Part shown: positions 1,720 through 53,197 of the stretch, one piece after another
How the letters are laid out: each line of letters starts with the position of its first letter
How positions within the stretch are numbered: the first letter of the stretch is position 1
NCBI GenBank assembly: GCA_041690695.1
Contig: JBEPVZ010000003.1
Location: 13,633 to 77,632 of the forward strand
Direction: 5' to 3'
Source: Candidatus Daviesbacteria bacterium
Lineage (GTDB): Bacteria > Patescibacteriota > Microgenomatia > Daviesbacterales > UBA10151
Length of the DNA: 64,000 nucleotides
Program-made: the position numbers and the translations under genes
The notes under the pieces: generated by a model
What the model was told of the DNA's origin: nothing
Databases searched by the model: none
Seen by the model: the letters and a program-made list of their open reading frames with translations, nothing else

Positions 1720-1791
1720 GGCACGGTGGTGAAGTGGTAACACAGGAGTCTGCAAAACTTCGACGCGCGGGTTCGATTCCCGCCCGTGCCT
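1720..1791 (+). tRNA. tRNA-Cys (anticodon GCA), no encoded CCA
   Basis: Acceptor GGCACGG/CCGTGCC. D-arm GTGA-AGTGGTAA-CAC. Anticodon stem GGAGT/ACTTC with loop CTGCAAA (GCA). T-arm GCGGG-TTCGATT-CCCGC. Discriminator T. Confidence 0.75.
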
Positions 1792-2716: not shown

Positions 2717-4168
<1,452 letters not shown>

Positions 4169-4255
4169 TTGTTATCCAAAAATTGGAATTGACAAGAAAA
4201 CTTGTCTTGTTTCCCACCACTATTCAGTACACCATTATCGAGTGACTGAAGAGTG

Positions 4256-12838: not shown

Positions 12839-15475
12839 ATGTGGAAGATGAAAAGAGGTTATACCTACAAATTAACCGCTTATTTATTTAGTTTTTTTGT
12901 GGTCTTAACTGGATTTCTGGTTCTCGGTCAGGGCCATTCAGTTTTTGCGATTGGGACAATTAAGAATTGTTACCCTGCTTCCTGTGATCAAGGACCGTCA
13001 ACCAGCGGCAACCAGATTACTTTCAGTGCTAACTCCCCCCAAACTCAAACCGTGGCCGGAAGAACATATACTTTATCTTGTTGGAACTCCCAGATGAGCT
13101 CAACTTCTGGGGGGGTAGTCACAATTGGGAATGATATCCCCAGTAATAGTCAATGTACTTTTCAACACACTTACTACTCGACCTCCGGCCCGTACGATGT
13201 CAGTGGTCAAACCCAGGCTTGTTACCTAGATCCTGATTCCCATACCTGTACCGCTGGACTGGAGAATGAAACGGTAGGTTTTGGTTCAATAACTGTTCAG
13301 GCTTGGTCAAGCCCAGCACCACCACCACCAAGTAGCGGCAGCTATTCATATGGGGTAAGTATTAATCCCAACCATGGTGGACAAATCACAAGCATGGCGA
13401 CAAGTGTCACAACTGATAATCCAGGTTACAGTTCAGCAACAATTTACTATGATGGATCATTCATTTGTAATATAGGCGCGAGTAAAAGTGGTGCCTGCAC
13501 TTCTCTGGGTGGGAATCAAGGCAGTCATACTGTCCGAGCCGATTTTGCTAATGGTGGATCGGCTACCACAACTTATACCGTTGATCCAGGACAAGGCCCT
13601 CAACCAACTCCACCTCCAAGTTGTCCTTGTGGAAGTTTTTTGAGTTGTAATAATAATGGAGTGCCTGGGGATGGCTCTAATCCGAGTTGTAGTAATCCGA
13701 CCTACCAATGCTATGGTGTGCTTTCAGATGGAAGTTGTGGCGGTGGAACGAACAGTGTTACTGGCACCTTAACTCCTGATCCAGTCTTGGTTGGAAATAG
13801 CGTCACAGTCACTGCCGTTAACAATGCTTCGTCAGCTGATGCAGTCTTTATCTGGTATCAAGGCAACCCTAGCTGTCTAACAAATGGCCCTGGTAAATGG
13901 AGCTGTGGACATGATCCTAGCGCCCTGAGCTACTTCCCTCCTCCAGGTTTTGGTGCGGATGTCACTTGCTCTGCATCGCCATCCTCTCCTGGGAGTAAAA
14001 CAACTGTCATTACTTGCCCTATTCCTGCGAATGCCACTCTGGGTCAGTATCATTGGTACGTATCCAACGGGACCACTTCTGAAGCAAGCAATGGAGGTTC
14101 TTCATATAATGGCACCATCGTTGATGGAAATAGTTGTAACGATCCTAAATATAGGATCTCTCCTAATACCGGACCAATCGGTACTCAAATTACTATCTCA
14201 GGTTGGCCAGCTGGAAACTACCAATTAGGTATCCAACCAAATATGTCAAATGACCAGGAACTCTTTAGTCAGCCAAATTATGCCAGTTGGTCAAACCTCG
14301 GCCCAGTCACTATGGGTGGTGATAGTAACCATGCCACTTGGACAGTGACTCAACCTCCTATCAACCCTGGTAGGTTTGTAGCCTTAATGTTCACGACAAA
14401 CATCAATGCTCCCTGGAGTGGTCAAACTGTGACTTGTCCTTTTACACCAACTGCGACACCAGTAGCCCCTGGAGCTTTCGACTTTACCTCAAGCACCGGA
14501 ACAGTCTGTACGAGTGGGACTCCTCATAATGATATCTACTGGACTCAATCGAGTGGCGCTGATACCTACTCTCTCTGGCGTTCTGATCCAAATGGACCCG
14601 GTTCATATATTGCCACCCTGGCTTCTTGGCAAACCAGTTTTGCTGATTACAACGTTACACCTGGAGTAGTTTATACGTACATACTTTATGCCCAGAATTC
14701 GGTTGGATTTACCCAGACAAGCACTTTCGACAAAGTTATAACCACCTCAACATGTGGCCCAGCGGGAATTACGCTTGATCCACCAACAACCTCATGTAGC
14801 GGTAGCCCGGCTAAACCAACCGTTTACCTAGCGTGGAGTAGTGCTGGACCTGGAGTAACCTACAGTATTCATCGTCAAGATTATGGCTTTATTCTAACTG
14901 ACTGGTTTGGTGGTGGGTACCCAGATAGCACCGTTAATCAAGGCACAAACTATACCTATTATATTGAGGCTAAAGATTCCTCCGGCCTAACTACCGACTC
15001 AAACACCCAATCAATCACCTCCGCCAGTTGTGATGGGATAGCTCCTCCCGACGTCAATATTAGTGGTGGACCAACAGCCGCTTGTTACTCCCCTACAACT
15101 TGGGCTGGTGAAACCCCTATTAAAGTCATTGCTAACGATGATCCAGGTGGAAGTGGTATTAAATCAGTAGCGGTTTTACTTTATGAGGTCAATTCACCAT
15201 CTGACACCTTAGTTAAGTCCTACCCAACAACTTTCACAGGTGGCTATTGGCAAACCGCCCCGGGAGTACCTCAAGCGTCAGATTTTACTTCGGGTCAAAG
15301 CTATTATCTTCGAGCTACCGCCACCGATAACGCGAATAATACTTCGGCTCCAAGTATTAAAACTCCAGTCTTTGTCTGGAGTAATACTGCGACAGGTTGT
15401 CTTAATCCGTTCTTAAATACAACTCTTGGAGATGTCCATTCTAATACCAAAATTGATACTCGTGGTGGACAATAA
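12839..15475 (+). CDS. Large secreted Cys-rich surface protein, paralog B (878 aa)
   Basis: Signal peptide MWKMKRGYTYKLTAYLFSFFVVLTGFLVLG. The conserved N-terminal domain (KNCYPASCDQG...QACYLDPDSH) and C-terminal domain (...LGDVHSNTKIDTRGGQ) are shared with 10200..12326. The middle is variable, Cys/Gly/Ser/Thr-rich with FN3-like repeats. Confidence 0.65.
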   Translation: MWKMKRGYTYKLTAYLFSFFVVLTGFLVLGQGHSVFAIGTIKNCYPASCDQGPSTSGNQITFSANSPQTQTVAGRTYTLSCWNSQMSSTSGGVVTIGNDIPSNSQCTFQHTYYSTSGPYDVSGQTQACYLDPDSHTCTAGLENETVGFGSITVQAWSSPAPPPPSSGSYSYGVSINPNHGGQITSMATSVTTDNPGYSSATIYYDGSFICNIGASKSGACTSLGGNQGSHTVRADFANGGSATTTYTVDPGQGPQPTPPPSCPCGSFLSCNNNGVPGDGSNPSCSNPTYQCYGVLSDGSCGGGTNSVTGTLTPDPVLVGNSVTVTAVNNASSADAVFIWYQGNPSCLTNGPGKWSCGHDPSALSYFPPPGFGADVTCSASPSSPGSKTTVITCPIPANATLGQYHWYVSNGTTSEASNGGSSYNGTIVDGNSCNDPKYRISPNTGPIGTQITISGWPAGNYQLGIQPNMSNDQELFSQPNYASWSNLGPVTMGGDSNHATWTVTQPPINPGRFVALMFTTNINAPWSGQTVTCPFTPTATPVAPGAFDFTSSTGTVCTSGTPHNDIYWTQSSGADTYSLWRSDPNGPGSYIATLASWQTSFADYNVTPGVVYTYILYAQNSVGFTQTSTFDKVITTSTCGPAGITLDPPTTSCSGSPAKPTVYLAWSSAGPGVTYSIHRQDYGFILTDWFGGGYPDSTVNQGTNYTYYIEAKDSSGLTTDSNTQSITSASCDGIAPPDVNISGGPTAACYSPTTWAGETPIKVIANDDPGGSGIKSVAVLLYEVNSPSDTLVKSYPTTFTGGYWQTAPGVPQASDFTSGQSYYLRATATDNANNTSAPSIKTPVFVWSNTATGCLNPFLNTTLGDVHSNTKIDTRGGQ

Positions 15476-24686: not shown

Positions 24687-26450
24687 CTACTGTTTTTTAT
24701 ACTGCTGATTATACATTTCGACTAACTCTTTAACCGTCGTCGCATCTTCAGCCTTTTTATCAGCTTCACGGAAACGGACTAATCTCGGGAATCTGAGGGC
24801 ATAACCTGGAGTTTTTTCGCCCGAGGCTGAGTTTACCGAAGCCCCAGCGGTATGGTTTGGCGACTTGGTGATTTCATCCGCCAAAACCTCAATCACGATC
24901 TCAGGTTTAACCCAAACTGATGGAGTTAAAAGAGAAACCACCCGAGCTGGCTTTTGATCAACTTTAATCTTATCAGCCCGTTTATGAATCTCGCGCCATT
25001 CATCGTCGGTTAAGCCAGTTCCGATCTTGGAAACCGTGACAAATTGGTCGTTTTCTTTATCATAAACTCCGACCAAAAGTGCTCCAGCTCCAAACTCAGC
25101 CCGCTTGCCCCGACCATAAATGTATCCTAGGATAACGGTATCAATGGTATCTTTAAGCTCACCTGACGAGTGGCGCTTGATCTTAATCCAGTTAAAATTT
25201 CTTGCTCCAGCTTGATAAGTTGAATCTGGACGCTTAACGATCAAGCCTTCAAGCCCTTTAGACAAGGCCTCTTCAAACATATTGGTAATCTTGTCCGGTT
25301 CAGTCACGAACTGGCCTGGTTGAGGCATGAGAACATCATCCCCCTTGATCGAGTCTGTCATCAATTTAATTCGCTCTTTGAGCGGCTTATCGACTAACGA
25401 CTTGCCGTTTAAATACATAATGTCAAAAACGAAGGCCTTCAGAGGCAGAGTCTTTGACATCTCTTCGATTCCATATTTGCGGCGACGTTTGGTCGTCTCT
25501 TGAAATGGTAAAAACTCTTCAGATTCAGGATTATATGCCAAAGCTTCAGAGTCTAAAATAATTGATTTAGCCTTGATTTGACTTAAAACCCCAGCAATAA
25601 TATCCGGGAACATTGGGGTGGTCTCTTCGAGATTTCTGGAAAATAGTCTAACTTTTTGGCCATTTTTATGAATTTGAACCCGAAATCCATCGTATTTATA
25701 TTGCAAATGGGCTTCCCCACCAAACTTTTCGAGGATTGTTTTAGGATCAGTAATCCGCTCACACAATTGGGACCGAATTGGCCGACCAACCGTCACATCG
25801 AGCTTTTCAATCGCCTTCAGCCCACCTTCCCAAAGTGTTTCACCAACTAGACCTAAATCTGAAACCTTGTTATAAGCCTCTTCCAATAACTTTCTTTTAG
25901 ACCGATCGCCCAACTTTAATGCTGCAAAGGCGTCTAAAACCGTCGGATCACCAATTCCGAGCCGACTTGCTCCAATTGGGATCCGAACGAGATGTTTAGC
26001 CTCAATTGGGCTAGCGTGCTCAAGTAATTTGGCGAGTGAGGATATTTTGTATTCTACAGTACCATCTCCTTTTGTCTCAGCAATCTTTCTAAGTTCGTCA
26101 AAGACATTTTTGACGGTTAGTTTATTTCCAGTTTGTCTTTTCTTATTGCTTAAGTTCTCAGCAACTTTTCCCAGATCTCCCACTCGGCCATCTTCTTTTA
26201 AAACCTCTTCCCGATCAACCGTATATGCTCGAGCAATTGCTCCGGCAACACTCTTCTCTGCCATACCAATCTCTGTTGCCTCATAAAATGGCGCCACTCG
26301 GCCTTGGATTAGATAACTGACCATGGCGACTTCATCCTTTTCAACATGGCTAAACAGCTCAGATAAGATCTCAATTAAAGTTAGGCGTGAAGATGTCCCT
26401 TCGAGCTTTTCAAAGTATTCAGTCAGAGTTTTAAATGTCATTACGATCAA
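24687..26450 (-). CDS. ATP-dependent DNA ligase
   Basis: Adenylation motif I KYDGFRVQIH (KxDG). 587 aa, with a typical ATP-ligase domain layout. Confidence 0.85.
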   Translation of the reverse strand: MIVMTFKTLTEYFEKLEGTSSRLTLIEILSELFSHVEKDEVAMVSYLIQGRVAPFYEATEIGMAEKSVAGAIARAYTVDREEVLKEDGRVGDLGKVAENLSNKKRQTGNKLTVKNVFDELRKIAETKGDGTVEYKISSLAKLLEHASPIEAKHLVRIPIGASRLGIGDPTVLDAFAALKLGDRSKRKLLEEAYNKVSDLGLVGETLWEGGLKAIEKLDVTVGRPIRSQLCERITDPKTILEKFGGEAHLQYKYDGFRVQIHKNGQKVRLFSRNLEETTPMFPDIIAGVLSQIKAKSIILDSEALAYNPESEEFLPFQETTKRRRKYGIEEMSKTLPLKAFVFDIMYLNGKSLVDKPLKERIKLMTDSIKGDDVLMPQPGQFVTEPDKITNMFEEALSKGLEGLIVKRPDSTYQAGARNFNWIKIKRHSSGELKDTIDTVILGYIYGRGKRAEFGAGALLVGVYDKENDQFVTVSKIGTGLTDDEWREIHKRADKIKVDQKPARVVSLLTPSVWVKPEIVIEVLADEITKSPNHTAGASVNSASGEKTPGYALRFPRLVRFREADKKAEDATTVKELVEMYNQQYKKQ

Positions 26451-40061: not shown

Positions 40062-41231
40062 ATGCTCAAAAAGCCTAGCTTCAAAACCCCATTAATTGTT
40101 CAAGAAAATCCCAAATTATCAATCTTTGTCGGAGTCTTACTGTTTTTAATCCTGCTCTTCATGGCCTTAATCTTCTTTTTTAAAAACCCTAATCTAGCTT
40201 CTAATTTCTCAAACAATAACTCGACCCCCGTCCAGTTTACCGATGCCCCTAAGGTTCAATTCTTTAATTACAATATCAGCAGTGCTAGCGCAGCCTTAAA
40301 GCCACCTACTCAAGTTAAGTTATATGACTTAAAAACTGATTTTAGTAATAATGAGATTCTAGACTTTGCGAAGAAGCTAGGTTTATCAAGTTATACGCCA
40401 GATAACGGGCCAACAGTAGTCGTTTATAACTATGATGACCCTGCTAATCGGGGCTTAATTCAATTTGATAAAACCACAGGTAGCTTTAGTTACGAATCAT
40501 ATGGAGTTTTAAAACCTTCTATTCAAGCCTCTACCCCTACTCAATCAGCCTTAAACATACTAACGGATCTAAACCTAAATGACTCGACATAGGTCTGTGA
40601 CTACACTTATCAGCGACAAGAAACTACAACTCAAACTTATCTTGAATGACATCATTCATGCGCAAAATTAGGTATGCCATTAACAAGCTTGGCCCAATCT
40701 TTAAATTTAACAGAGGACGAAAAGTTAATCTCAGCTGCACCCGGCAACGTTACAGAAGCGGTCGATGACGACCCGACAATTCAAAACGTCAAACAAAATG
40801 GCTTAGCTCAAGTAGCTAGTAATGGTCGGGCTAGACCAGCTGATTTTAATACTGTCACTGTGGGAGTTAATACCGATGGATCGATTCAAACAATCGTCTC
40901 TAATTTGCGATGGATTACAAGTGCTGACACCTTAGCTTCAAGCCAGTTAATTACTCCCCAAGAAGCACTGACGACATTTAAAAATAACCAGGCCGATATT
41001 GCTATGGTTGTTCCTGAAGGCCGCGGAGTAGTCGATCTGACTAAAGTTTTTCATCATAATACGGCTATTGGCCAAGATGGCAATATTTCTGAATTTCAAT
41101 TGATTTACCTTGAAAAAACCAGCGATACAGCCGAAACTCAATATCTTCCTTACTATTTAATTCGCGGTTACTCGGAGTTAGATTCTGGTTACAATGTTCG
41201 TTTTGCCGAGTTAATCAAAGCTATTAAATAA
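40062..41231 (+). pseudogene. Disrupted paralog of the 45399..46565 gene (frameshift near 40590 plus in-frame TGA near 40650)
   Basis: ORF 40062..40592 matches the N-terminal half of the 388-aa paralog (FDKTTG.FSY.SYG) and ORF 40674..41231 matches the C-terminal half (SRPSDFNTVTVG...YLVYLEK...YYLI.G...SGY.V.F...IK). The gap translates in a shifted frame to VCDYTYQRQETTTQTYLE*HHSCAKLGMPL, aligning to IGCNHSYQQTTLPGVTFVECHRQWDKLGLPL, with TGA at the conserved Cys. Confidence 0.55.
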
Positions 41232-41640
41232 CTATGACAAAACTCGCACTATCACTACCAGGCTTTCAAAATGCGGTCTCAAGTCCTGCTAAAACTCAGT
41301 ATCAGGATCTTGGCTCACTACTTTCAGGTGGTTACTCTATTCTGCTTTTGATTGCTGCCTTTTTAATGGTTTATTGGTTGTCTTGGGGAATCTTTCAATA
41401 CATCTTTGCTGGTGGTGAAAAAGAAAAGTTAGCTCATGCTCGGAAAAGAATTACTTGGGCGATTGTTGGTTTTATCATTATTGTTTTAGCTTTTACGATT
41501 CGTTACTTTGTAGAAGAAGTCTTCCCCCCTCAAAATACATTAACCCAAGTCGATACTCCCCTTAACTATGTCTCAACTGATCTTCAACAACCCCCAACTG
41601 CAGTTCAACAACCTCAAACTGGTGGTACTGGTGGTCAAGC
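41226..41640 (+). repeat. Copy A of a perfect 415-bp direct repeat (copy B at 46560..46974)
   Basis: Identical by direct comparison, from 8 nt upstream of the ATG through codon ~135. Identity ends inside the Gly/Thr-rich linker, where copy A has an extra 21-nt GGTGGQA-type unit. Confidence 0.9.
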
Positions 41641-43237
41641 CGACGGAACAGGCGGCCAAGCTGGTACAAATGGTCAGCAAAATCCCAGCCAACACAGCCC
41701 TATTTTACCAAATGCTCCTGGGGGACCAGCTCAACAGGATCAGATTACAACCAATATTCCTGAAACTTGCCAGCAATATGTTTCAGCTCATGGTTCAGCT
41801 ATAGCCGACATTCAAGGCTATAATCTATCTTTTAATGTTCCTAATTATGGAATATTAAATGTCGCCATGAAAAGTCGAGGTATTTATTTGACTGACGATA
41901 CCCCCGTTACAACGGCACAATCTCAGAGAGAGCAAACTAAAAACGCCTTTTTCCAAGTCATCAAACAACAATATTTAAGAAACTTTGCTTATGATCTGGT
42001 TAAAAGACGGAAAAGAGAAGCTGATCTGGGAGTTGATCCCAAAAATCAGAGTTTTGATATAAATCACAATTTTAATAATACCGATGAGATCAAAACTGAG
42101 TTTAGTAAGTTAGATAATTCGTATAAGTCCACCTTCAATGGTGGTGAACCAGATAGTATTGGTTGTAGCTTTAATCCTGATCCAGGCACTGCTCTATATT
42201 ACCCCGCTCCTTTATATAACTGTACTAAAAATACCCAATTAGATAATGGCATGATTGAGATAATCGCTGATGGAGTTGCCTCAGATTATAAAAACTCGAC
42301 AGTGGCAGAGCGTTACGACTGGGCTAACAAAGTTGAAGATTATAAATTCGGTAATTTAAACTACACCCTTCCTTACTACTTTACTGACTTTATTGCTAAT
42401 CCTTCGAGCACCAATGGTGCATCGTCTGGGGCTGCCAAGGCCTGTTATGTAACTGGATTTGTTCACAACCCGCAATTAGATAATCTAAACCGTCAGGCTA
42501 ACTTTTCTGAGTTTGGTTGCTATGAATTGGCAGTCACAGGGCCTGGCAATTCAGCTATTCCGCTTGAAAACGGCAACTTAAATCAACAAGTTCAAGATTA
42601 TGAGAACTCTGTCGCTTCGCATCAACCTGGTGGGACATCAACAATCAAGGCGACCTTGCCAAACGACGATAAAGCTTTTAAATATGTTGAAGGTGCACCA
42701 GGTCAGACGGTTGATGCAAGTGGTCAAATAATAATTGGGGCGGTCGGCGAACCACTCTATGCACAAGGTACGGGCAATGTTGTTAAAAAGTTATTTCACT
42801 ACGATTACGATACCAGTAAGATTATCTGGAACGACCCAACTAGCTATTATGTTATTCCAAATATTCAAACTGATCCTAATAATCCAAGTTGGAATCCGAT
42901 TATTGATAAAATTGGCCAAGGTTTAGGATTAAACGCGGTCGAGATTACGGCTCTTAAGTTGAGTATGATTCATCACGCTATGTACTTTACTCCCCAGGAA
43001 GCACCTTACCTAAAAATCTCAGTGGTTGATCCTGCTGAAGTCAAGGAAAAAATACCATTAAGTATTGATAGTAGCTATGGTGAGGTTGATCCTAAATCTT
43101 TCCACCGTAATAACTTACTAGTTGAGAAACTAAAAATCGATGACCCCACCTTACATGGTCATGAACCCCAGCTTAAACCTTATCCCGTTTCCCCAACACC
43201 GGTAATTATGTTTGAAACGGGTGTGGCAGTGAGATAA
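41234..43237 (+). CDS. Fusion protein: N-terminal VirB2/TrbC-like (CPR T4SS-pilin-like) two-helix hairpin plus long variable C-terminal ectodomain (667 aa)
   Basis: N-terminal [65 protein letters not shown] has a TM1 / short basic loop / TM2 topology like VirB2/TrbC pilins. It is followed by a GTGGQ-rich linker and a ~500-aa unique region. The first 415 nt are identical to the 46568 gene. Confidence 0.6.
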   Translation: MTKLALSLPGFQNAVSSPAKTQYQDLGSLLSGGYSILLLIAAFLMVYWLSWGIFQYIFAGGEKEKLAHARKRITWAIVGFIIIVLAFTIRYFVEEVFPPQNTLTQVDTPLNYVSTDLQQPPTAVQQPQTGGTGGQADGTGGQAGTNGQQNPSQHSPILPNAPGGPAQQDQITTNIPETCQQYVSAHGSAIADIQGYNLSFNVPNYGILNVAMKSRGIYLTDDTPVTTAQSQREQTKNAFFQVIKQQYLRNFAYDLVKRRKREADLGVDPKNQSFDINHNFNNTDEIKTEFSKLDNSYKSTFNGGEPDSIGCSFNPDPGTALYYPAPLYNCTKNTQLDNGMIEIIADGVASDYKNSTVAERYDWANKVEDYKFGNLNYTLPYYFTDFIANPSSTNGASSGAAKACYVTGFVHNPQLDNLNRQANFSEFGCYELAVTGPGNSAIPLENGNLNQQVQDYENSVASHQPGGTSTIKATLPNDDKAFKYVEGAPGQTVDASGQIIIGAVGEPLYAQGTGNVVKKLFHYDYDTSKIIWNDPTSYYVIPNIQTDPNNPSWNPIIDKIGQGLGLNAVEITALKLSMIHHAMYFTPQEAPYLKISVVDPAEVKEKIPLSIDSSYGEVDPKSFHRNNLLVEKLKIDDPTLHGHEPQLKPYPVSPTPVIMFETGVAVR

Positions 43238-43241
43238 AGTT

Positions 43242-45344
43242 ATGGTCACCAACTCTGCGACAGACCCACTTTCAAAAAATAAGCGTAAATTAAAATTAAT
43301 TTTAATTGGTTTCGGATTACTGGTTATCTTTATACCAATTTCAGCATTCTTAATTAATCATTTTCAAAGGCCATCAACTCCACCTAGCCTAGCCGATTTT
43401 CCACAAATGACCCCATACACTAGTAGTGCCTCGGCCTTTGTAGCTAATCAGTTAATTGTTAAATATAAAGAGGCTTCATCTCCAGCCGAGTTAACGGACA
43501 ACAATGAAAAAGATGCAATTGCCAAGCTCTATGCCGAGCTCGGAGTTTCTTCACAGCTTCAAGCTTATCCTTCAACCGATAACCCAGATCTTAAGGAGTA
43601 CTATCTACTCGAGTTCAAAGCAGGTTCGAGTCTTAGTCTTGCCAAACAGACTCTGTCACAGCTCAAAGAAGTTGAAACCGTCGACCTAAATCCAGTCCTA
43701 AGCTTGCAAGCCACCCAAGTAGCCGGGTTAACTAATGATCTTTACTCTCTATATCAATGGAATTTAGGAAAGATTAATATTGCTCCTGTTTGGAAAGCTG
43801 GTTACCTTGGCTCAGATAAAGTTGGCATAGCAATTTTAGATTCAGGATTAGTTTTTCCTCAAAAGCATCCTGATTTACCCAGCAATATCATTCATGTTAC
43901 AAAACCTGATGACTATAACCAAGCTGCTGAGTTTTATGGAACAGCCCAGAATGACCATGTTCATGGCACTGTTGTAACAGGAATTATTGGTGCGATCAAA
44001 GACAATCATCAAGGTATTAGCGGAGTAAGTCCGATGGTTCAGATATATTCTTATCAAGTTTGTCGAAATGAAGAGTGTGATAGCTTAGCAGCTAGCCAAG
44101 CCCTCGAGTCTATCGCTCAATCCCCTGGCAAGGTTAAAGTAGTCAACTTAAGTTTAGGAGCTCCTAGCCAATCGACACCTTCAGAACCAGTTTGCCCCGA
44201 TTGGGTACAAGGACCAATTAACGATCTAACCAGTAAAGGCATTCTAGTCGTAGCCGGAGTTGGGAATGGTGATTTTACCACTGGTAATCGAGTTGGAATT
44301 GATGCCAAAAACTTTATTCCAGCCTCATGCAAAGGAGTTTTAGGTGTAGCTGCAACTAATGCCAATGACCAAAAAGCTTCATATTCAAATTATGGATCGG
44401 TGGCAAAAATTTCAGCACCGGGAGGTGAGAACGAGGCCAATGGTGCAATTTTATCGACAATTCCATTTGGAGATATTCCTAAGGATGGTCAGCTCGGGCC
44501 TTATGGAAAATATTTCGGCACATCGATGGCTACACCCCAAGTTAGTGCCGTCGCCGCTTTATTGTTTTCAGCCAATCCCGACTTAACTGTCGATAAGATT
44601 AAACAATGTTTAACTGAGGGAGGAGATCCAGTAAGCAACTTAGATCCTAAACAACCAATTGGTCCAAGATTGAACGCCGCTGGAGCTTTTAATACTTGTG
44701 GAATTCAAATCGCAAACACAACCACAGCTGATGCTAAAACAGCAACTCCACCGGTCATCCAACCCGCCCAGCCAAAAACTCCACCTCCTCCCCCGCCACC
44801 GGTCGTTTCAAAAAGTATATTACCCACTCTCCCATCAACCAACACTCCAACTACCCAAACCCCAACGAGTGTTGACTTACCCTCTGCCCTCTTTAAAGAA
44901 GTTAAAGTTGACCCTGAACAAGGCCAACTTAACGCTTTAATTACTGCCAATGTAGCTTTGTCTAATACCCAAACTCATCAGTACAAATTCCACTGGTGTG
45001 CCAATCCAACGGATATCGCGCCTCACCAGATCTGTAACGACATCACTAATTACTTTAACTTTCAAAGAGCTCCATCCGATGGACCGACTCCCAATACCAT
45101 TTTAAATGATCAGATTATTGGTCAATTTAGTCCTTCTTTGATCTGGCAGCCTTCAATTGCAATATCGGACAGAACAACTGGTAATGCTATTTATGGAAAC
45201 TATATTCTTGAAGTTGATGCCTGTAACAAGCAACCTGATGGAACCTGTCAGAACTCCAACAAACAAGATGTTTGTAGCGTTATTCAATACGATGAGTGCG
45301 TTAATTATGATCATTACAATGTCATCTTTCAACTAAACCCCTAA
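43242..45344 (+). CDS. Membrane-anchored subtilisin-like serine protease (peptidase S8) with conserved C-terminal 6-Cys domain
   Basis: N-terminal TM anchor. I9-like propeptide region. Catalytic triad context AILDSG (Asp), HGTVVTG (His), [16 protein letters not shown] (Ser). The C-terminal ~150 aa ([11 protein letters not shown]...DECVNYDH) are shared with the 48777 gene. Confidence 0.8.
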   Translation: MVTNSATDPLSKNKRKLKLILIGFGLLVIFIPISAFLINHFQRPSTPPSLADFPQMTPYTSSASAFVANQLIVKYKEASSPAELTDNNEKDAIAKLYAELGVSSQLQAYPSTDNPDLKEYYLLEFKAGSSLSLAKQTLSQLKEVETVDLNPVLSLQATQVAGLTNDLYSLYQWNLGKINIAPVWKAGYLGSDKVGIAILDSGLVFPQKHPDLPSNIIHVTKPDDYNQAAEFYGTAQNDHVHGTVVTGIIGAIKDNHQGISGVSPMVQIYSYQVCRNEECDSLAASQALESIAQSPGKVKVVNLSLGAPSQSTPSEPVCPDWVQGPINDLTSKGILVVAGVGNGDFTTGNRVGIDAKNFIPASCKGVLGVAATNANDQKASYSNYGSVAKISAPGGENEANGAILSTIPFGDIPKDGQLGPYGKYFGTSMATPQVSAVAALLFSANPDLTVDKIKQCLTEGGDPVSNLDPKQPIGPRLNAAGAFNTCGIQIANTTTADAKTATPPVIQPAQPKTPPPPPPPVVSKSILPTLPSTNTPTTQTPTSVDLPSALFKEVKVDPEQGQLNALITANVALSNTQTHQYKFHWCANPTDIAPHQICNDITNYFNFQRAPSDGPTPNTILNDQIIGQFSPSLIWQPSIAISDRTTGNAIYGNYILEVDACNKQPDGTCQNSNKQDVCSVIQYDECVNYDHYNVIFQLNP

Positions 45345-45398: not shown

Positions 45399-46565
45399 GT
45401 GCTAAAAACTGTTCAAGACTGGGCTCGGGCTAATAAGTTATTATTCAGTTTAAGCGCAGGTGGGCTTATTTTAATTCTGATTCTGGGAATAGTCACTCTT
45501 GTTTTGAAACTTAATCAGTCTCACACCACTCCCACTTCTACTAAATCATCATCACAATCAACTAGTCTGCCGACCTATCCCGCTCCAGCTGTGAAATTTA
45601 ATAGCTACCAGATCAGTGATGCCGCTAAAGCTTTGAAAGTGCCTGATCAAGTTAAACAATACCTCTTAAGAGCCCATTTTTCAGACTCAGACGTTAAAGC
45701 TTTTAGCAGAGCTTTTGGTTTAAATGACTATTACCTGGATGAATCTGGCCAAGCAGTCGCCTCAAACGTTAGTGATGTTAATAACCAAGGCTTAATGAAT
45801 TTTGATAAAACGACCGGCTTTTTTAGCTATCGATCTTACGGTTTAATTCAACCATCGGCTTCGTCTTCAGGCACAATTAATGCAGCGGTCAGTTATTTGA
45901 GCGATGTTGGATTGACTGATCCGACGATTGGTTGCAACCATAGCTACCAACAAACCACTCTTCCAGGCGTAACTTTCGTTGAATGTCATCGTCAGTGGGA
46001 CAAGCTCGGCTTACCACTGGTGAACTTACCAGGCGTTCTCAATATTCCTGAAAATCAAACTTTTACCGCTACTCGACCAGGCGATGTCGCTGAATTCTCA
46101 CTCCTTGACCCCTCTATCGCTAGCGTTAGTGCTTATGGAGTCTTAAAACCAACGGACAATGGTAAATCTCGGCCCTCAGATTTTAATACTGTCACAGTTG
46201 GGCTTTGGGGTGGAACTAATATTTATAGTTTATCTTCAAATCTGCGAACGATTATCTCCTCATCAGTTGTGACAAACTTATTAACTCCCGATGAAGCTCT
46301 CCAAGCTTTTAAAGATCAAAAAGCCGAGGTTTCTTTAACCCTGCCGACCGGTCAAGGCTCGTTTGACTTTGCTAAAGCTTATCCTAATAACCAGGCCCTA
46401 GCCCAAACAGCCACCATTAATAAACTCTATCTCGTTTACCTTGAAAAACCCCATGACCAGGCTCAAACTGACTACTCACCCTATTATTTAATTCAAGGCA
46501 CCGCCAATTTAAGCAGCGGTTATACAGTCAAATTTGTTCAAGTGCTATCAGCCATTAAAAAATAA
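45399..46565 (+). CDS. TM-anchored protein of unknown function (388 aa), intact paralog of pseudogene 40062..41231
   Basis: N-terminal TM helix LLFSLSAGGLILILILGIVTLVL. Conserved blocks FDKTTGFFSYRSYG, SRPSDFNTVTVG, YLVYLEKPHDQAQTDYSPYYLIQG. No known domain recognised. Confidence 0.5.
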   Translation: MLKTVQDWARANKLLFSLSAGGLILILILGIVTLVLKLNQSHTTPTSTKSSSQSTSLPTYPAPAVKFNSYQISDAAKALKVPDQVKQYLLRAHFSDSDVKAFSRAFGLNDYYLDESGQAVASNVSDVNNQGLMNFDKTTGFFSYRSYGLIQPSASSSGTINAAVSYLSDVGLTDPTIGCNHSYQQTTLPGVTFVECHRQWDKLGLPLVNLPGVLNIPENQTFTATRPGDVAEFSLLDPSIASVSAYGVLKPTDNGKSRPSDFNTVTVGLWGGTNIYSLSSNLRTIISSSVVTNLLTPDEALQAFKDQKAEVSLTLPTGQGSFDFAKAYPNNQALAQTATINKLYLVYLEKPHDQAQTDYSPYYLIQGTANLSSGYTVKFVQVLSAIKK

Positions 46566-46974
46566 CTATGACAAAACTCGCACTATCACTACCAGGCTTT
46601 CAAAATGCGGTCTCAAGTCCTGCTAAAACTCAGTATCAGGATCTTGGCTCACTACTTTCAGGTGGTTACTCTATTCTGCTTTTGATTGCTGCCTTTTTAA
46701 TGGTTTATTGGTTGTCTTGGGGAATCTTTCAATACATCTTTGCTGGTGGTGAAAAAGAAAAGTTAGCTCATGCTCGGAAAAGAATTACTTGGGCGATTGT
46801 TGGTTTTATCATTATTGTTTTAGCTTTTACGATTCGTTACTTTGTAGAAGAAGTCTTCCCCCCTCAAAATACATTAACCCAAGTCGATACTCCCCTTAAC
46901 TATGTCTCAACTGATCTTCAACAACCCCCAACTGCAGTTCAACAACCTCAAACTGGTGGTACTGGTGGTCAAGC
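46560..46974 (+). repeat. Copy B of the perfect 415-bp direct repeat (copy A at 41226..41640)
   Basis: See copy A. Confidence 0.9.
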
Positions 46975-48757
46975 TGGTACAACTCATGCCGCTCCGGTTG
47001 TAGTAACTAATCCTGGCACACTAGAATCATTACCCCACAATACAGATGGTAGCCCCAAGATTAGCTTCAGCTGTAGCGCCAGCCCTCAAACCATTAATTA
47101 TGATGACACTTTGACCGTCACCACCACTAATAGCCATCCCCAGGGTATTAATATCTTTATTGATAATAATACTCAAAATGCTGGCTCACTGAGTCCGATC
47201 ACAACCCAATCGACCACAAATAAAAATGTTTATAACATCGGCTTTAAGGCCCAGTTACAATATAACCCTCTCTACGCTCCACCTTATAATCACACCTTAA
47301 TTTTAGTTGATAATGGCAATCCGGCCATCTCAGAAAGCTGTACTTTTAACGTCAGCCCTCAAACGAGTTGTTTAAATGGGGACAAGAACGAAGTCTCAAC
47401 ATTTTCGATCAACTTACCCGACTTCGGAAACTATAATGTTACTTACTCAACACTCGGGACAACCACTGAAAATGCGGGCAGAGCGGCTGGGGTGGTTACT
47501 TCATTTTTTACCGACAAACCATCAAATTTAAGTAATAATCCGACTCTCTTAAATAGCCTCAGAGAAGCCATTTACAAGCGAGTTGAAGACCAATACGTCA
47601 TTAATGTCGCCGCCTTCCTGGTGAGAGTTAATCAAAATATCTCTCGGCCGCTACCAGCCAAAGGCTCGGTTGATGAAGCGAATGCAGTCGCAGCTCTTAA
47701 AAACTTAGATTTCAATCATCAAGATACTAAATTCACCAGCCTTGACCAACTCACTAATATCAAAAGTCCTAACGATATCTTGTCACTTTTTTCAAGCGAG
47801 TGTAAGTTTCAGGAACAGGGTGGAACGATGCCGTATTATCAGTGCAATCCTCAAACCATCGGCGACTATGGTGATCCAGGTTTAAGCAATCGGGTTAACC
47901 AAACTGCCCAAGACGTCGCGAGTAGAGTCTTTACCTTAATAAATAGTAATCCAAACGATATTATTGCGGCCTTAACTCCTACCGCAAATCAACCAGCTTT
48001 ATTTGTCGGTCGACCGATGAGTAATATCTATGAATCATTAATTACTCCTAATATTTCTGATCCTAATCCCAACAATGCTAATTTAGCTTTGGGGAATGAT
48101 CTAATAACCCAAAGAGGTATTAACCCAGGTCCTAATCTAGTTGACCTTTATCCTAAAACAGTCAGCCAGCTTCAATCCTGTTTTATAACCGGGGTGACTT
48201 TAAATTCACCGAGCTTATTCTTATACACCCAGATACCCCAATCAGTTAAAGTCACCACCCAATCCCAGGTTGGCTACTCAGACCCAGCCACAAATGATAA
48301 CAGCTGGAATGTCACCACTTCCCCCTCTGGCCAAGTGACAACAGATAATAATATTGAGCGAGATTATCTCTATTATGAATATAAGAGGGCCAGTGTTAGC
48401 TTTAACCAGCCCAACACCGGTTATATTGTCACAAGATCTGACTGGCAAAATTTAATCCGCAATACTATTGCTAAAGGTTTAGGACTTAATCAAAAAGAGA
48501 CTGACCGCATGATTAGTGAAGTTAGTAATGCTTTAGTCGGCTCTTCAAATTCACCATATTTAAGAATCTCATTGATTGATCAAGCCGAATTAAATTCTCA
48601 ATTGCCACTCCATTTCTCAACTCAGCCTGATCATCTCTATCGCTTCCACCTCATGGTCAGCTCTGTTCAGGCACCAGCTTCAATTCCCGAGCCCACTCTA
48701 AAAACGGTCGAGCGCTTAGGTTTTACCGCCATCGAGCTGGGTGCGGTCTACCGCTAA
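46568..48757 (+). CDS. Fusion protein: VirB2/TrbC-like pilin N-domain plus different variable C-terminal ectodomain (729 aa)
   Basis: The first ~135 aa are identical to the 41234 product. The downstream ~590 aa are unrelated in sequence to the 41234 C-terminus, and Asn/Thr/Ser-rich. Confidence 0.6.
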   Translation: MTKLALSLPGFQNAVSSPAKTQYQDLGSLLSGGYSILLLIAAFLMVYWLSWGIFQYIFAGGEKEKLAHARKRITWAIVGFIIIVLAFTIRYFVEEVFPPQNTLTQVDTPLNYVSTDLQQPPTAVQQPQTGGTGGQAGTTHAAPVVVTNPGTLESLPHNTDGSPKISFSCSASPQTINYDDTLTVTTTNSHPQGINIFIDNNTQNAGSLSPITTQSTTNKNVYNIGFKAQLQYNPLYAPPYNHTLILVDNGNPAISESCTFNVSPQTSCLNGDKNEVSTFSINLPDFGNYNVTYSTLGTTTENAGRAAGVVTSFFTDKPSNLSNNPTLLNSLREAIYKRVEDQYVINVAAFLVRVNQNISRPLPAKGSVDEANAVAALKNLDFNHQDTKFTSLDQLTNIKSPNDILSLFSSECKFQEQGGTMPYYQCNPQTIGDYGDPGLSNRVNQTAQDVASRVFTLINSNPNDIIAALTPTANQPALFVGRPMSNIYESLITPNISDPNPNNANLALGNDLITQRGINPGPNLVDLYPKTVSQLQSCFITGVTLNSPSLFLYTQIPQSVKVTTQSQVGYSDPATNDNSWNVTTSPSGQVTTDNNIERDYLYYEYKRASVSFNQPNTGYIVTRSDWQNLIRNTIAKGLGLNQKETDRMISEVSNALVGSSNSPYLRISLIDQAELNSQLPLHFSTQPDHLYRFHLMVSSVQAPASIPEPTLKTVERLGFTAIELGAVYR

Positions 48758-48776: not shown

Positions 48777-51700
48777 ATGTCTGAACCAAACACTCCTAGT
48801 CCTATCGTAGCTCCACCATCGACTCAAGCGTCCTCACCTCATACAAGTAAACTAGCGTTTTTTAAAACTCATAAAAAACTCGCCATTATTGGGGGCTATG
48901 TACTGGTTTTAATTTTAATTCCTTTAATATTTCTGGCGATCTCAGGTCAAAAAAAACAGCCGCAGACTAGTCCAACGGAGCTCGAAGTCGTTATACCTAA
49001 ACCAGGCGCCGCCAATCAGCCAAAGGTTGTTGCGGACGAGCTGATTGTTAAGTACAAGGCTGGCCAATCGCTTAATGAAGCCAGTTCTGCGGCCAATATC
49101 TTGCCTCTTCAAACCGCTGAGCAAGCTGCAGGCATGGCTAGCCAAGAGCCACTTTATCTCTCAGATGACCCTAGTTTAAAAGAGTTTTACGTTTTTAAGC
49201 TCAAAAATGGCACCAATTTAGATCAATCTCGAAAAGCCTTAGCTCAACTTCCCCAAATTGAATCAGTTGAAGTCAACCCGATTCTGTCACTACAAGAGCA
49301 AAATCAGGTCACGATGTCAGTTGCACCTAATGATTACTTTTATCCCCAACAATGGAACTTACAAAAGATTCAGATCGAGAAGGTCTGGCAACAATATACT
49401 TTAGGTTCAAAAGACGTTTCGATCGCCTTAATTGATGGCGGAGTTGATCCGACTCATCCTGATCTTCCTCGAGATATTACGATCGGTAAAAACTTTATTA
49501 GCGATTCCCAAACGGATCATGACCACGCCACCGGCTTAGCTGGAATTATGGTCGCTCAAACCAATAATAAGATTGGTATTAGCGGGATTAGCCCGGGAGT
49601 TCATTTAGTCTCTTTTCAAGCTTGTAGTGATTTAGATCCTCAATTTTGTAGCATGGTTTCGATCGATCGGGCAATTGAGACCGCTGCAAATACTAAAGGG
49701 GTCAGAGTTATTAATATCAGTATTGAGGGCGAAAATACCCAAGATGGGGTTAATATCGGTTGCCCAAGCTTTACCCAAGCTTCAATCACTAAGGCCACTC
49801 AGGCCGGAGTGCTGGTCGTCGCTAGCTCTGGTAATGGCATTGATAATCATGGTAAAGCGGTTGATGCCAAAAGCATGAATATTGGAACTTGTGTCGGCGT
49901 TTTAATGGTTGGGGCGACTACCATTACCAAAAATGGCGATCAAGAAGTTGAGAAACGAGCTAACTATTCAAATTACGGATCCTCAGTTAAATTATCCGCT
50001 CCAGGTGGAAGCATTCCAGATCCAAGTAATCCAAACGATCCGCTTAATCATGGTATTATCTCGCTTGGCAAAACCAAACCCGATCAAAAAGGTCCACGCT
50101 ACACCCAAGCTTCTGGAACTTCAGATGCTGCCCCTGAAGTTAGTGCCGTTGCGGCGCTGCTCTTCTCAGTCAAACCCAGCTTAACCGCCGAACAAGCCAC
50201 AGATTGTTTAATTCAAGGCGCTGATACTATTCAAACTGATTTGCCGATTGGTCCAAGATTAAACGCTCTGGGAGCATTTAAAGCTTGTGGGATTAAGCCA
50301 ACTAATTATCCATCAGCTAATTCGGCTCCAACAGTCACACCTACAATCACCCTCTCCCCCTCTGACACAGTCACTGAAGGCAGTAATATTCAAATAACCT
50401 CAAATTTAAATGGCGAGATCGGTCAATTAGTCGCATTTAAATTGTGTTTTGAAGGCCCGGATAAATCTAACTTAAACTCTGACAAGAGCTGTTCTGGATT
50501 AATTGCCGGAACAACTTTACCGGCCCAAGCCATTAATAAAAGCTATGGCTATTACCAAGTTTATGGAATGAGTTGTCAAACAACCGGTAGCGCCCCAAGC
50601 TTGACCTGTGATCCCACTGTTCGACCAACCCAAGAGGCATGGAGCCAGCCGATTCAATTAGTCAAAGCTGGCAGCACCGGTGGGACTGGTGGCACCACCA
50701 CCCAACCTTCCACCACTCAGACTGGTCTGAATAAGATTCAACACATTATCATCATGGTCAAAGAGAACCATACCTTTGATAACTATTTTGGAACATTCCC
50801 TGGCGCCAATGGCACCACCACCTACCCTGGCCCAGATGGTAATCCGAAACCGTTGGCCCATGATCCTGATTCTTTACTAAATGATATTAATCACGATCCA
50901 GCCGCCGCTCACCTAGCTTACGATTCTGGCAAAATGGATAATTTCAAAAATATTCCAGGAGCAATCCAAGATGGTCATGACTATTCTGATGGCCAATATT
51001 ATCAGGCTGATATTCCAAATTATTGGGCTTACGCTCAAAAATATACTTTACATGATAACTTTTTTACCAACATCCTTGGACCGAGCTTTGAAAATCATCT
51101 TTTAACTATCGCTGGAGATAATCCTAGCAATGTCGATGGTAATCCCCAAGGCGATACTAATCCCAACCACAACAATGGTGCCGGGGTTTGGGGATGTGAT
51201 TCAGCTTCCAATACCCAAGTCGAGAAACGAGATGGCAATGGTAGTATCACTACGACTTATCCCTGTTTTGACTTGCCAACTTTAGGCGATAGTCTAAATA
51301 AAGCTAATATCTCTTGGAAATATTATGCCCCAGCCCAAAACCAGCCCGGTTATCAATGGTCTGCCTACGATGCTATTAAAGGTATCCGAAATTCAGATCA
51401 ATGGTCTACGCATGTTGTTGACTCTGACCAGTTCCAAAAAGATGCTGCTAGTGGTAATTTACCAGCCGTTAGCTGGCTAGTTCAACCGTTTGACGTTAGT
51501 GATCACGCACCTTCGAGTGTCTGTCAAGGTGAAAACTGGACAGTCGATCAGATGAACGCGATTATGGGTAATTCGAACTCATGGGATAACTCAGTCGTAA
51601 TCTTAACTTGGGACGATTTTGGGGGCTTTTACGACCATGTTACCCCTCCCAAAGGACCTAATGGCGAGATTATGGATGGCTTTAGAGTTCCAGCCTTAAT

Positions 51701-52640
51701 TATCTCCCCTTATGCTAAACCAGGCTTTATTGATCATACTCAAAACACCTTTTCATCGATTCTTAAATTCGTCGAGAATCGCTATGGTTTACCACCTCTT
51801 GGCTCTCTTGATAGTGCGGCAACCGATTTCAGTAGCTCACTTGATTTCAATCAAACCCCACTCTCAGCTCTAACCTTAAAAACCAGAAGTTGTCCAGCCA
51901 CAACTCAAGAGAAATCAGGATCAGCCACGACTCCTGTTCCACCCGTCAAGACTCCTCCGACCACTCCACCGTCAAGCTGCTTAATCAAGATTGGACCACT
52001 CTGTATTCCGAGTTTGCCTAAAATTACTTTTCCGACCTTACCAAAGATTGATCCATCCGCAATTTGTAAAGTTCTTCATACCTGTTCGAACCCCAAACCA
52101 GACACAAACACTTCACCCGCCAGCTCATCGGCCACCCAAACTAACCCACCTCCAGCTCAAAACCAATCTAGTGTCGATTTACCTTCGGCTCTCTTTAAAA
52201 CAGTTAAAGTCACACCTGAGGATGGCAAGCTTGATAGCTTAATTAGCGCCGACATTAATTTATCAAACACCCAGTCTCATCAATATAAATTCCATTGGTG
52301 TGCTAGCCCAGCTAATATTGCTCCTCATGAGATCTGTAACAATATTACTAACTATTTTAACTTTGCCAGAACCGATCCAGCGACAGGCACAATTGTTAAT
52401 GATCATATTACCGGCCAATTTAGCCCATCCTTAATTTGGAATCCTGATATCGTAGTTTCCAATCGCGCTCCAACCAACGCCTATTATGGAACATATTTCC
52501 TTGAAGCCGACGTCTGTAATACTCAACCCAATGGCAAATGTAATAACTCTAAAAATGAGGATGTTTGTAGCATTATCCGAAATGATGAGTGTGTTAATTA
52601 TGACCATTTCTCGGTCAAGTTTAATTTAAACCAACAATGA
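48777..52640 (+). CDS. Membrane-anchored multidomain enzyme: S8 subtilisin plus phosphoesterase (phospholipase C / acid phosphatase family) plus shared C-terminal 6-Cys domain (1287 aa)
   Basis: S8 motifs [13 protein letters not shown] (Asp), DHATGLAG (His), [16 protein letters not shown] (Ser). Central [23 protein letters not shown] matches the phosphoesterase-family ENRSFDHYFG motif. C-terminal ~150 aa are homologous to the 43242 C-terminus. The TGA stop overlaps the ATG of the next gene. Confidence 0.8.
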
Positions 52641-53197
52641 CAAAATTAGCCTTATCACTTCCAGGTTTCTCAGACGCGATTGATAGTCCGACCAAACAAG
52701 CTAAACCTCAATTTCAAGATCTTGGTTCCCTACTGTCTGGTGGATACAGTATCTTACTTTTGATTGTCGCTTTTTTAATGGTTTATTGGTTGTCTTGGGG
52801 AATCTTTCAATACATCTTTGCGGGTGGTGAGAAAGAAAAGTTAGCTCATGCCAAAAAGCGAATTACCTGGGCAATTGTCGGTTTTATAATCGTGGTTTTA
52901 GCATTTACGATTCGAGGGTTTGTCGAAGAAACATTTACCCCTCAAAACACCCTAACTCCCGTTAGTGTCCCCGGAGCCGTTTCGCCCAATCAAGCTCAAG
53001 GTAATTCGGGCAATAGTGGAGGTGGCACGACTGGCGGCGGAGTCAATCCGGGTAGTGGTACTGGAAACACTGGCAATCCTAATCAAGGCCAGCCTGGTGG
53101 AGGAGCTGGAAATGGCGGGTCACTTAGCTTGCCTGGTAGTGGTGGGACCTTTAAAGTTCAGGGTTATATTCCTGGCCAACACCTATTATCAAATTAA
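52637..53197 (+). CDS. Short VirB2/TrbC-like pilin-family protein with Gly-rich C-terminal tail (186 aa)
   Basis: The N-terminal 110 aa are ~85% identical in protein to the pilin-like N-domains of 41234/46568. The tail is [40 protein letters not shown]. Confidence 0.55.

Follow-up and report, generated by a model that had tools for sequence, protein, structure and literature searches.

An Exported Subtilase-Phosphoesterase Fusion Protein with an Orphan Six-Cysteine Tail, Predicted in a Pilin-Gene Array of Candidatus Daviesbacteria

The window analysed here, a 64,000-nucleotide (64-kb) stretch of a metagenome-assembled genome (MAG) contig of Candidatus Daviesbacteria, carries a gene for a 1287-aa protein in which a subtilisin-like protease of the Peptidase_S8 (S8) family and a phosphoesterase of the AcpA/phospholipase C (PLC) superfamily share one open reading frame (ORF). 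This protein is regarded, with moderate confidence, as a single exported multidomain hydrolase that arose by insertion into the linker of an older S8 protease and that would scavenge peptides and phosphoesters at the bacterial envelope or at a host surface. The original prediction, made from the letters of the DNA, had placed two distinct hydrolase domains in one ORF; Pfam matches and alignments confirm both, with their catalytic residues intact, and the other details of the prediction that could be checked were borne out as well. The order of the domains is an N-terminal hydrophobic anchor, a fervidolysin-like prodomain, Peptidase_S8, a 140-aa Cys-containing domain, PF04185, a Pro/Thr/Cys-rich linker, and a 157-aa six-Cys domain. 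All the domain and identity figures given below are far beyond chance. The exact 1287-aa protein is recorded once at the NCBI (P0001). The gene, its parts, and its paralogue are as follows:

48777..52640, forward strand: S8-phosphoesterase fusion ORF, stop included, with an ATG start, 1287 aa and no internal stop
48876..48944, forward strand: hydrophobic segment following KTHKK, a signal anchor or uncleaved signal peptide (aa 34-56)
49011..49277, forward strand: Fervidolysin_NPro-like prodomain (aa 79-167; PF22148, E 2.6e-4, 21.7 bits against a cutoff of 21)
49410..50222, forward strand: Peptidase_S8 catalytic domain, PF00082 (aa 212-482)
50292..50711, forward strand: middle domain with four Cys (557, 572, 600, 611) and a Gly/Thr-rich spacer at its end (aa 506-645)
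50724..51899, forward strand: AcpA/PLC-superfamily phosphoesterase module (aa 650-1041), with PF04185 on aa 654-1006
51900..52166, forward strand: Pro/Thr/Ser-rich linker with four Cys (1068, 1076, 1097, 1103) (aa 1042-1130)
52167..52637, forward strand: C-terminal six-Cys domain, shared with the tail of the paralogue (aa 1131-1287)
43242..45344, forward strand: 700-aa paralogue with anchor, prodomain, S8 domain, a Pro/Thr linker of about 50 aa, and the six-Cys domain (aa 542-700, nt 44865-45341)

Two intact hydrolase domains

The match to PF00082 (E 1.4e-36; 126.7 bits against a gathering cutoff of 21.8) places the protease part in the S8 family, and alignment to solved subtilases recovers D220, H250, and S449 in the Asp-His-Ser order together with the oxyanion N353; the subtilisin triad that had been proposed is therefore present and intact. 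These residues are invariant in the 700-aa paralogue, which also gives a weak Pfam match to the Fervidolysin_NPro family. The S8 domain shares at most about 30% identity with any S8 protein found elsewhere, and a scan of metagenome contigs with an alignment of the two paralogous S8 domains returned only S8 proteins at 25-30% identity.

The fusion protein has a single hydrophobic segment, at aa ~34-56, and Kyte-Doolittle windows of 19 aa scoring above 1.6 are confined to aa 32-60; the layout of the anchor is the same in the paralogue. A secreted, membrane-anchored protein had been proposed, and an N-terminal membrane or signal anchor was indeed found. It lies, however, upstream of the prodomain, so that autoprocessing of the kind usual in subtilases would take the mature enzyme off the anchor, and its retention would then be up to the C-terminal domain.

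The phosphoesterase module matches PF04185 along the entire profile (positions 1-356 of 356; E 1.2e-64; 219.2 bits against a cutoff of 23), so that it belongs to the superfamily and the doubt whether this region would find any significant profile match is removed. The signature motif starts at E663, and the active site is composed of an E-N pair, a G-P-S nucleophile motif, a DD...DH element, and a G-x-R-V-P element. The conserved residues are E663, N664, S770 (the nucleophile), N773, H774, H910, D946, D947, D953, H954, and R970. In alignments AcpA and PlcH have counterparts of E663, N664, S770, D946, D947, D953, H954, and R970, and these positions are invariant in 41 relatives with the exception of D947, which falls at a D/E position; N773, H774, and H910 are invariant among the relatives as well. 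The module also contains four Cys residues (807, 830, 916, 1039) conserved across the family of stand-alone proteins, which fits an extracytoplasmic enzyme.

These stand-alone proteins, of ~430-450 aa, number in the thousands and are 50-61% identical to the module over 94-100% of its length. The module corresponds to their entire mature part, from "IQHI" to a conserved "R-x-C-P", and where they have a signal or transmembrane segment of their own the fusion protein has its Gly/Thr spacer. The relatives that carry a taxonomic name come from Chloroflexota, Ktedonobacteraceae, Anaerolineae, Herpetosiphonaceae, and Dormibacteraeota, and are annotated as "phospholipase C" or "alkaline phosphatase family protein"; an S8 domain was present in none of the 120 closest module relatives listed. 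In a neighbour-joining tree the module of the window branches off singly, close to the family's base. Two proteins among its closest relatives, at 60% identity, are P0126, in which a Pro/Thr linker and a dockerin occur as well, and P0128; both are encoded on low-GC contigs (L089, 3238-5238, GC 0.39, and L090, 1052-2764, GC 0.37, respectively). The module may circulate outside Chloroflexota too, and the named matches do no more than suggest that it was transferred horizontally from that phylum.

The AlphaFold2 model of the module (mean local confidence, pLDDT, 87.7; predicted template-modelling score, pTM, 0.90) was compared with known structures using Foldseek, and it shares its fold, at TM-scores (TM) of 0.69-0.73, with 9gye, 8k3g, 8yk5, 9gy2, 2d1g, and 8hav. 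These six comprise PlcH, PlcN, a fungal non-specific PLC (RePLC), the plant non-specific PLC NPC4, a Streptomyces glycerophosphoethanolamine phosphodiesterase, and AcpA; sulfatases come next, at TM ~0.4. The best Foldseek match is PlcH (9gye, E 1.7e-24), and the best match by sequence in the PDB is Francisella AcpA (2d1g, E 1.2e-26), the Pseudomonas PLCs giving E values of 1e-23 to 3e-22. The module has the AcpA-type Ser nucleophile (GPS770 aligns with the GPS of AcpA) and a single-domain catalytic architecture; Ser is the reported nucleophile of AcpA (PMC9837106). The traits of phosphocholine-specific PLCs (PC-PLCs) are missing, as residue 770 is Ser and not Thr, and no further Pfam domain follows the module, which ends at C1039 and passes into the Pro/Thr linker. 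In plant NPC4, the nucleophile is Thr158 and the C-terminal domain is indispensable for activity (PMC9837106). The module can thus be assigned with confidence to the AcpA/PLC superfamily, but to neither of the two curated subfamilies (PC-PLC and acid phosphatase). The original description of a phosphoesterase typical of PLC or acid phosphatase holds for the superfamily and the catalytic residues; a PLC type is not established, given the sub-cutoff subfamily scores discussed below, the Ser nucleophile, and the lack of PLC C-terminal domains.

Origin of the fusion and its conserved tail

The N-terminal and S8 part of the fusion protein, 37% identical to that of the paralogue, and the tail are both collinear with the paralogue, in which just ~50 Pro/Thr-rich residues join them. 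Because the flanking parts are collinear with one contiguous paralogue, the simplest history is the insertion of ~625 residues (middle domain, phosphoesterase, and new linker) into the linker of an older S8 protease, and the 700-aa paralogue shows the architecture that preceded this insertion. The inserted middle domain has no Pfam match even at E<=10 and no further copy within the window, and it is missing from the paralogue. The new linker, with a Pro+Thr+Ser fraction of 0.48, likewise matches no Pfam family.

It had been asked of this ORF whether it could be two genes merged by a sequencing error, and to this can be added the possibility that Chloroflexota DNA was spliced into a contig of the candidate phyla radiation (CPR). 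Such an artefact would agree with the protein being a singleton from one MAG contig, with the closest named relatives of the module belonging to another phylum, and with the nearby 415-nt perfect repeat, which marks the region as hard to assemble. Nevertheless, no sign of a merger was found. Both flanks are homologous to one contiguous paralogue, and a merger of two genes would require the tail to have been part of the phosphoesterase gene. The 3.86 kb are free of stops, at both module junctions the other two frames are full of them, and ahead of the module there is no start codon, ribosome-binding site, or vestigial signal peptide of a separate phosphoesterase gene. The GC content at third codon positions (GC3) is 0.363 in the module and 0.31-0.40 in the other genes of the window, housekeeping genes included, and an identity of ~60% to the closest relatives speaks against a contemporary foreign fragment. 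The host-like codon composition and the lack of a vestigial signal peptide argue for a true fusion rather than a merged or chimeric ORF. The merged-gene or chimera explanation was rejected on the collinearity of the paralogue, the GC3, and the closed junction frames, and it is given almost no credence.

The C-terminal domain had been described as shared at about 60% identity with the smaller S8 protease, and the measured value is 65%: in BLASTP, aa 1133-1285 align with aa 544-699 of the 700-aa protein with 101/156 identities (E 2e-66). Six Cys residues (C1175, C1187, C1247, C1255, C1264, and C1272) are invariant between both tails, as expected from the original prediction, which could name no family for the domain. 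It proved to be even more of an orphan than was supposed. An exhaustive hmmsearch of 1.84 billion representatives retrieved only the two proteins of the window, nothing meaningful was found in Pfam (E<=10), NCBIfam, or PDB sequence and profile searches, and there is no third copy in the 64-kb window. The AlphaFold2 model built from the two-sequence alignment (pLDDT 37) only hints at a beta-rich domain.

The nonsynonymous divergence between the two paralogues (dN, Nei-Gojobori) rises from 0.23 in the tail through 0.56 in the S8 domain to ~0.8 in the prodomain and anchor, and synonymous sites are saturated everywhere, with a proportion of synonymous differences (pS) of ~0.75. Because its dN is low despite the saturated synonymous sites, the tail is an old domain under purifying selection stronger than that on the catalytic domain; it is neither junk nor the product of a recent gene conversion.

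A VirB2-like pilin array and its chromosomal surroundings

The fusion gene is the third gene of the second of two tandem three-gene cassettes, each of which begins with the gene for a transmembrane protein (o388), continues with that for a VirB2-like pilin bearing a large, variable ectodomain, and ends with that for a six-Cys-tailed S8 protease. Besides the two S8 genes, the following genes belong to the cassettes or adjoin them:

40062-40592 and 40674-41231: two ORFs, the split counterpart of o388 in cassette 1
41234..43237, forward strand: cassette 1 pilin-like gene, 667 aa, with PF18895 at the N-terminus
45399..46565, forward strand: cassette 2 gene 1 (o388), 388 aa, with an N-terminal transmembrane segment and no family
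46568..48757, forward strand: cassette 2 pilin-like gene, 729 aa, PF18895 (E 2.1e-7), ending 19 nt before the fusion gene
52637..53197, forward strand: third, short pilin-like gene, 186 aa, PF18895 (E 4e-9), repeat family D1

The packing is operon-like, with gaps of 19 nt and -4 nt flanking the fusion gene, as the start of the third pilin gene overlaps the fusion-gene stop by 4 nt. A scan of the cassette for promoters and terminators gave sites no more numerous than in shuffled sequence. The successive pilin genes (starting at 41234, 46568, and 52637) are separated by the S8 gene and the 388-aa gene, and then by the fusion gene alone, and they agree with the definition of a VirB2-like pilin array as at least two PF18895/PF04956 genes in tandem or with one non-pilin gene between them. 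Arrays of this kind, tandem or interrupted by non-pilin genes, are abundant in Microgenomatia (PMC12102498), and the fusion locus is one Patescibacteria VirB2-like pilin array.

The two long pilin-like proteins are far longer than typical VirB2 pilins: PF18895 covers their N-terminal ~100 aa and is followed by divergent ectodomains of 500-600 aa. At least 127 N-terminal residues are identical between them, and the remainder is 24% identical. At the nucleotide level, the 5' ends of both genes form a 415-nt perfect direct repeat (41226-41640 and 46560-46974), of which a third copy, at 71%, occupies 52638-52937. The perfect repeat, set against the 24% identity beyond it and the saturated synonymous sites of the cassette S8 genes, suggests either local gene conversion or homogenisation, or else a fault in the assembly. 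One 5.3-kb cassette would be lost if the 415-nt repeats recombined. It is also worth noting that o388 is matched in its N-terminal half by one of the two ORFs of cassette 1 (39% identity) and in its C-terminal half by the other (41%); the ORFs may represent a pseudogene, a frameshift, or a true split.

As to the distribution of the locus, a scan of genome contigs with the full fusion protein found no relative, and no pilin N-terminus, S8 protease, o388, or pilin ectodomain of the cassette was found at 80 PolA-anchored loci, six of them Daviesbacteria-like.

The window is chromosomal, as it carries a 16S rRNA gene, tRNAs, PolA, FtsH, ClpB, a tRNA synthetase, and an ATP-dependent ligase. Its PolA, its FtsH, and an ABC transporter share 61-73% identity with their counterparts in MAGs of Candidatus Daviesbacteria, a Patescibacteria group within the Microgenomates group. 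Such a Daviesbacteria-like CPR identity fits the context of an organism living off a host, and this tiny bacterium is probably host-dependent. Three contigs (L001, L003, and L006; GC 0.38-0.40) titled "uncultured Gammaproteobacteria bacterium" encode PolA/FtsH 61-70% identical to those of the window, and these labels are probably wrong. Several other features of the window deserve mention. The complete 16S rRNA gene (2719-4170, reverse strand) has no adjacent 23S gene and is followed downstream by a protein ORF and tRNA genes, and the rRNA genes appear to be unlinked. Two forward-strand ORFs, 10200-12326 and 12839-15475 (708 and 878 aa), have no Pfam match at E<=1e-5 and a GC content of 0.46-0.48, somewhat above that of their surroundings. 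The ATP-dependent DNA ligase, of archaeal/eukaryotic type, has all three domains and is encoded at 24687-26450 on the reverse strand. Listed together with the 16S rRNA gene are the following two features:

534-605, reverse strand: feature listed with the 16S rRNA entry
1720-1791, forward strand: feature listed with the 16S rRNA entry

Possible function and comparison with known systems

In the mechanism proposed here the N-terminal hydrophobic segment would direct Sec-dependent export of the protein, and the prodomain would assist the folding of the subtilase and then be cut off, freeing an ectodomain of S8 protease, phosphoesterase, and tail from the anchor. The putatively disulfide-rich tail, where conservation between the paralogues is strongest, would tether both enzymes to one shared ligand, for which the cell's own envelope, the neighbouring pilin-like surface proteins, and a host cell are candidates. 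At the surface so bound, the protease would free peptides, and the phosphoesterase, acting through a Ser770 phospho-enzyme in the manner of AcpA, would cut phospholipid head groups, glycerophosphodiesters, or phosphomonoesters. The products, amino acids, phosphate, and possibly lipid moieties, head groups, and diacylglycerol, would feed a biosynthetically poor CPR cell, which would be in keeping with the resource extraction from a host surface put forward in the original prediction. For the CPR bacterium Vampirococcus, a secreted phospholipase has been proposed to serve host-lipid scavenging (PMC8080830).

Several points weigh against this scavenging by a single tethered hydrolase. The residue that follows the catalytic Ser449 is Asp450 (codon 50122-50124), giving GTSD where subtilisins and the paralogue have GTSM. 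Mutagenesis of M222 in subtilisin indicates that a change at the Met after Ser may lower activity without abolishing it, and the protease of the fusion may be attenuated through Asp450. That the prodomain is autoprocessed and the enzyme set free from its anchor is an assumption based on how subtilases generally behave. A binding or retention role of the tail, of the kind already suggested in the original prediction, is the most economical guess, inferred from its C-terminal position, six Cys residues, conservation, and extracytoplasmic context. The module scores 145.4 bits with TIGR03396 (PC_PLC; cutoff 580.25) and 139.5 bits with TIGR03397 (acid phosphatase, AcpA; cutoff 362.75). The substrate class, be it phospholipid, glycerophosphodiester, or phosphomonoester, is not readable from sequence or fold, because these equivalog scores are below the cutoffs, the nucleophile is Ser, a PLC C-terminal domain is missing, and the fold matches are equally good. 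Lastly, the fusion protein and every one of its neighbours in the cassettes are singletons in a collection of 15 billion proteins, all from one MAG contig, and in a Daviesbacteria relative (L002) the PolA-SpoU side of the synteny is kept and the cassette is absent.

The alternatives, which are not mutually exclusive, differ mainly in what the phosphoesterase and the protease would act on. A broad phosphomonoesterase or soluble phosphodiesterase of the AcpA kind, which would take phosphate from dissolved organophosphates with no direct action on host membranes, is a genuine possibility that we hold tentatively. AcpA is the best PDB sequence match of the module (2d1g, E 1.2e-26), the nucleophile Ser is invariant, the size and architecture are AcpA-like in that the C-terminal domains of PLCs are missing, and the closest relatives are abundant stand-alone secreted enzymes of soil-type metagenomes and free-living Chloroflexota, often several per genome; the soil Chloroflexota relatives probably scavenge phosphate. 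On the other hand, the score with TIGR03397 is below its cutoff (139.5 against 362.75 bits), the subfamily is not known to have a characterised member, and an enzyme joined to a protease and a presumed surface-binding tail, and encoded within a pilin array, would more likely act at a surface than in bulk solution. That the module is specifically a PLC, the lipase of the original prediction, attacking the host membrane so that diacylglycerol and phospho-head groups could be reused by a lipid-auxotrophic CPR cell, seems somewhat doubtful. PF04185 includes PlcH, PlcN, the Plc proteins of Mycobacterium tuberculosis, and plant non-specific PLCs (NPC), the top Foldseek and NCBIfam matches are PlcH (9gye) and PC_PLC, and N773-H774 after the nucleophile resembles the "T-x-P-N-R" motif of PLCs; host-lipid recycling has moreover been reported for CPR cells, in line with the Vampirococcus proposal (PMC8080830). 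However, the PC_PLC score of 145 bits is far under the cutoff of 580, the Ser nucleophile is that of AcpA whereas the characterised PLCs and NPC4 use Thr (PMC9837106), neither a DUF756 nor the C-terminal domain (CTD) that is essential in NPC4 follows the catalytic domain, and the fold is equally close to AcpA (TM 0.73) and to a glycerophosphodiesterase.

It is also conceivable, if unlikely, that the S8 proteases of the cassettes mature the adjacent VirB2-like pilins by trimming or releasing their ectodomains in the manner of mycosins, the phosphoesterase being a passenger on one copy. VirB2/TrbC pilins need proteolytic processing, each cassette strictly pairs a pilin-like gene and an S8 gene, only 4 nt apart in one and 19 nt in the other, and among the S8 models of NCBIfam both paralogues score best with the mycosin of type VII secretion systems (T7SS; TIGR03921; 108 and 105 bits). 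These scores are nonetheless far below the cutoff of 278.75, and the fusion protein, at 108 bits, with no C-terminal transmembrane segment and with VirB2-like pilin genes as neighbours, is not a mycosin; no T7SS genes occur among the window ORFs examined. Furthermore, no protease gene is paired with the third pilin gene, the S8 genes on the contigs of three close S8 relatives (P0003, P0013, and P0007) are not beside pilin genes, and pilin maturation would leave the conserved tail and the added phosphoesterase unexplained. A bolder proposal, which we consider quite improbable, is that the cassette serves a CPR episymbiont as a modular device for contacting and feeding on its host, in which the tail would dock hydrolases on the pilin ectodomain or the host envelope, the fused enzymes would open the host surface locally at both protein and phospholipid, and the 415-nt repeats would allow recombinational cassette switching.

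The interest of the fusion protein, read as one exported scavenging hydrolase, lies in several directions. Bacteria of the CPR/Patescibacteria are thought to live off other cells, and to our knowledge few surface enzymes with which CPR cells would take up host material have been concretely identified. The protein is a testable candidate for such an enzyme, with two intact hydrolase centres and a lineage-restricted conserved tail, inside a pilin array. As cited in a study of these arrays, the VirB2-like pilin gene class is essential for episymbiotic growth in a cultured Saccharibacterium (PMC12102498). The fusion is also a clean example of how a protein may originate, by the placement of a complete foreign-type secreted enzyme in the inter-domain linker of a duplicated protease. 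It provides a useful annotation and an experimental lead for the biology of CPR-host relations, resting on one MAG contig, and represents no new kind of system.

Several known systems resemble parts of the fusion protein. The stand-alone secreted PF04185 proteins of Chloroflexota and related soil bacteria (P0130, P0138, P0176, P0180, and P0232, among others) have the same invariant catalytic residues and the four Cys residues, but they are single-domain proteins of ~430-450 aa with a signal or transmembrane segment of their own, and S8 was found in none of the 120 best; we know of no biochemically characterised member among them. AcpA of Francisella tularensis (2D1G) belongs to the same superfamily and shares with the module the fold (TM 0.73), the Ser in "GPS", the E-N pair, the DD...DH element, and the lack of a PLC-type C-terminal domain; it differs in being only ~24% identical to the module, which stays under the TIGR03397 cutoff, and in being a free periplasmic or secreted single-domain enzyme. 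PlcH and PlcN of Pseudomonas aeruginosa (9GYE, 9GY2) and plant NPC4 (8HAV), PLCs that prefer phosphocholine or are non-specific, have a similar fold of the catalytic domain (TM 0.69-0.71) and the same active-site constellation (PMC9837106), but use a Thr nucleophile and carry a C-terminal DUF756 (the bacterial enzymes, which also have Tat signals) or CTD (NPC4). On the protease side, the S8A subtilases of the Thermitase/AprV2 type share the D-H-S order, the oxyanion Asn, and a fervidolysin-like prodomain, whereas the fusion protein has an N-terminal anchor, Asp in place of Met after the Ser, and ~800 extra C-terminal residues. Mycosins are likewise membrane-associated subtilases encoded inside a secretion or surface gene cluster, but are anchored by a C-terminal transmembrane segment absent from the fusion protein.

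The VirB2-like pilin arrays of Patescibacteria (PMC12102498) resemble the locus in having several PF18895 genes with non-pilin genes between them, a strong divergence of the copies, and a host from the Microgenomates group. The array of the window is set apart by its ectodomains of 500-600 aa and by identical 415-nt 5' regions, against an identity of <=54% within the arrays of that study; the interspersed genes encode S8 proteases here, whereas in that study they are "non-pilin" genes whose identity is not stated there (PMC12102498). With regard to the complete protein, relatives were collected by a word-indexed search, and among the best 120 of its 191 significant matches PF00082 and PF04185 occur together only in the fusion protein itself; no described protease-PLC fusion in Patescibacteria was found in the literature. 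Both enzyme families are common, and multidomain secreted hydrolases are frequent in bacteria. Thus, the catalytic families, the pilin-array context, and multidomain secreted hydrolases are already known, while the combination of domains is new as far as tested and the six-Cys tail is a true orphan.

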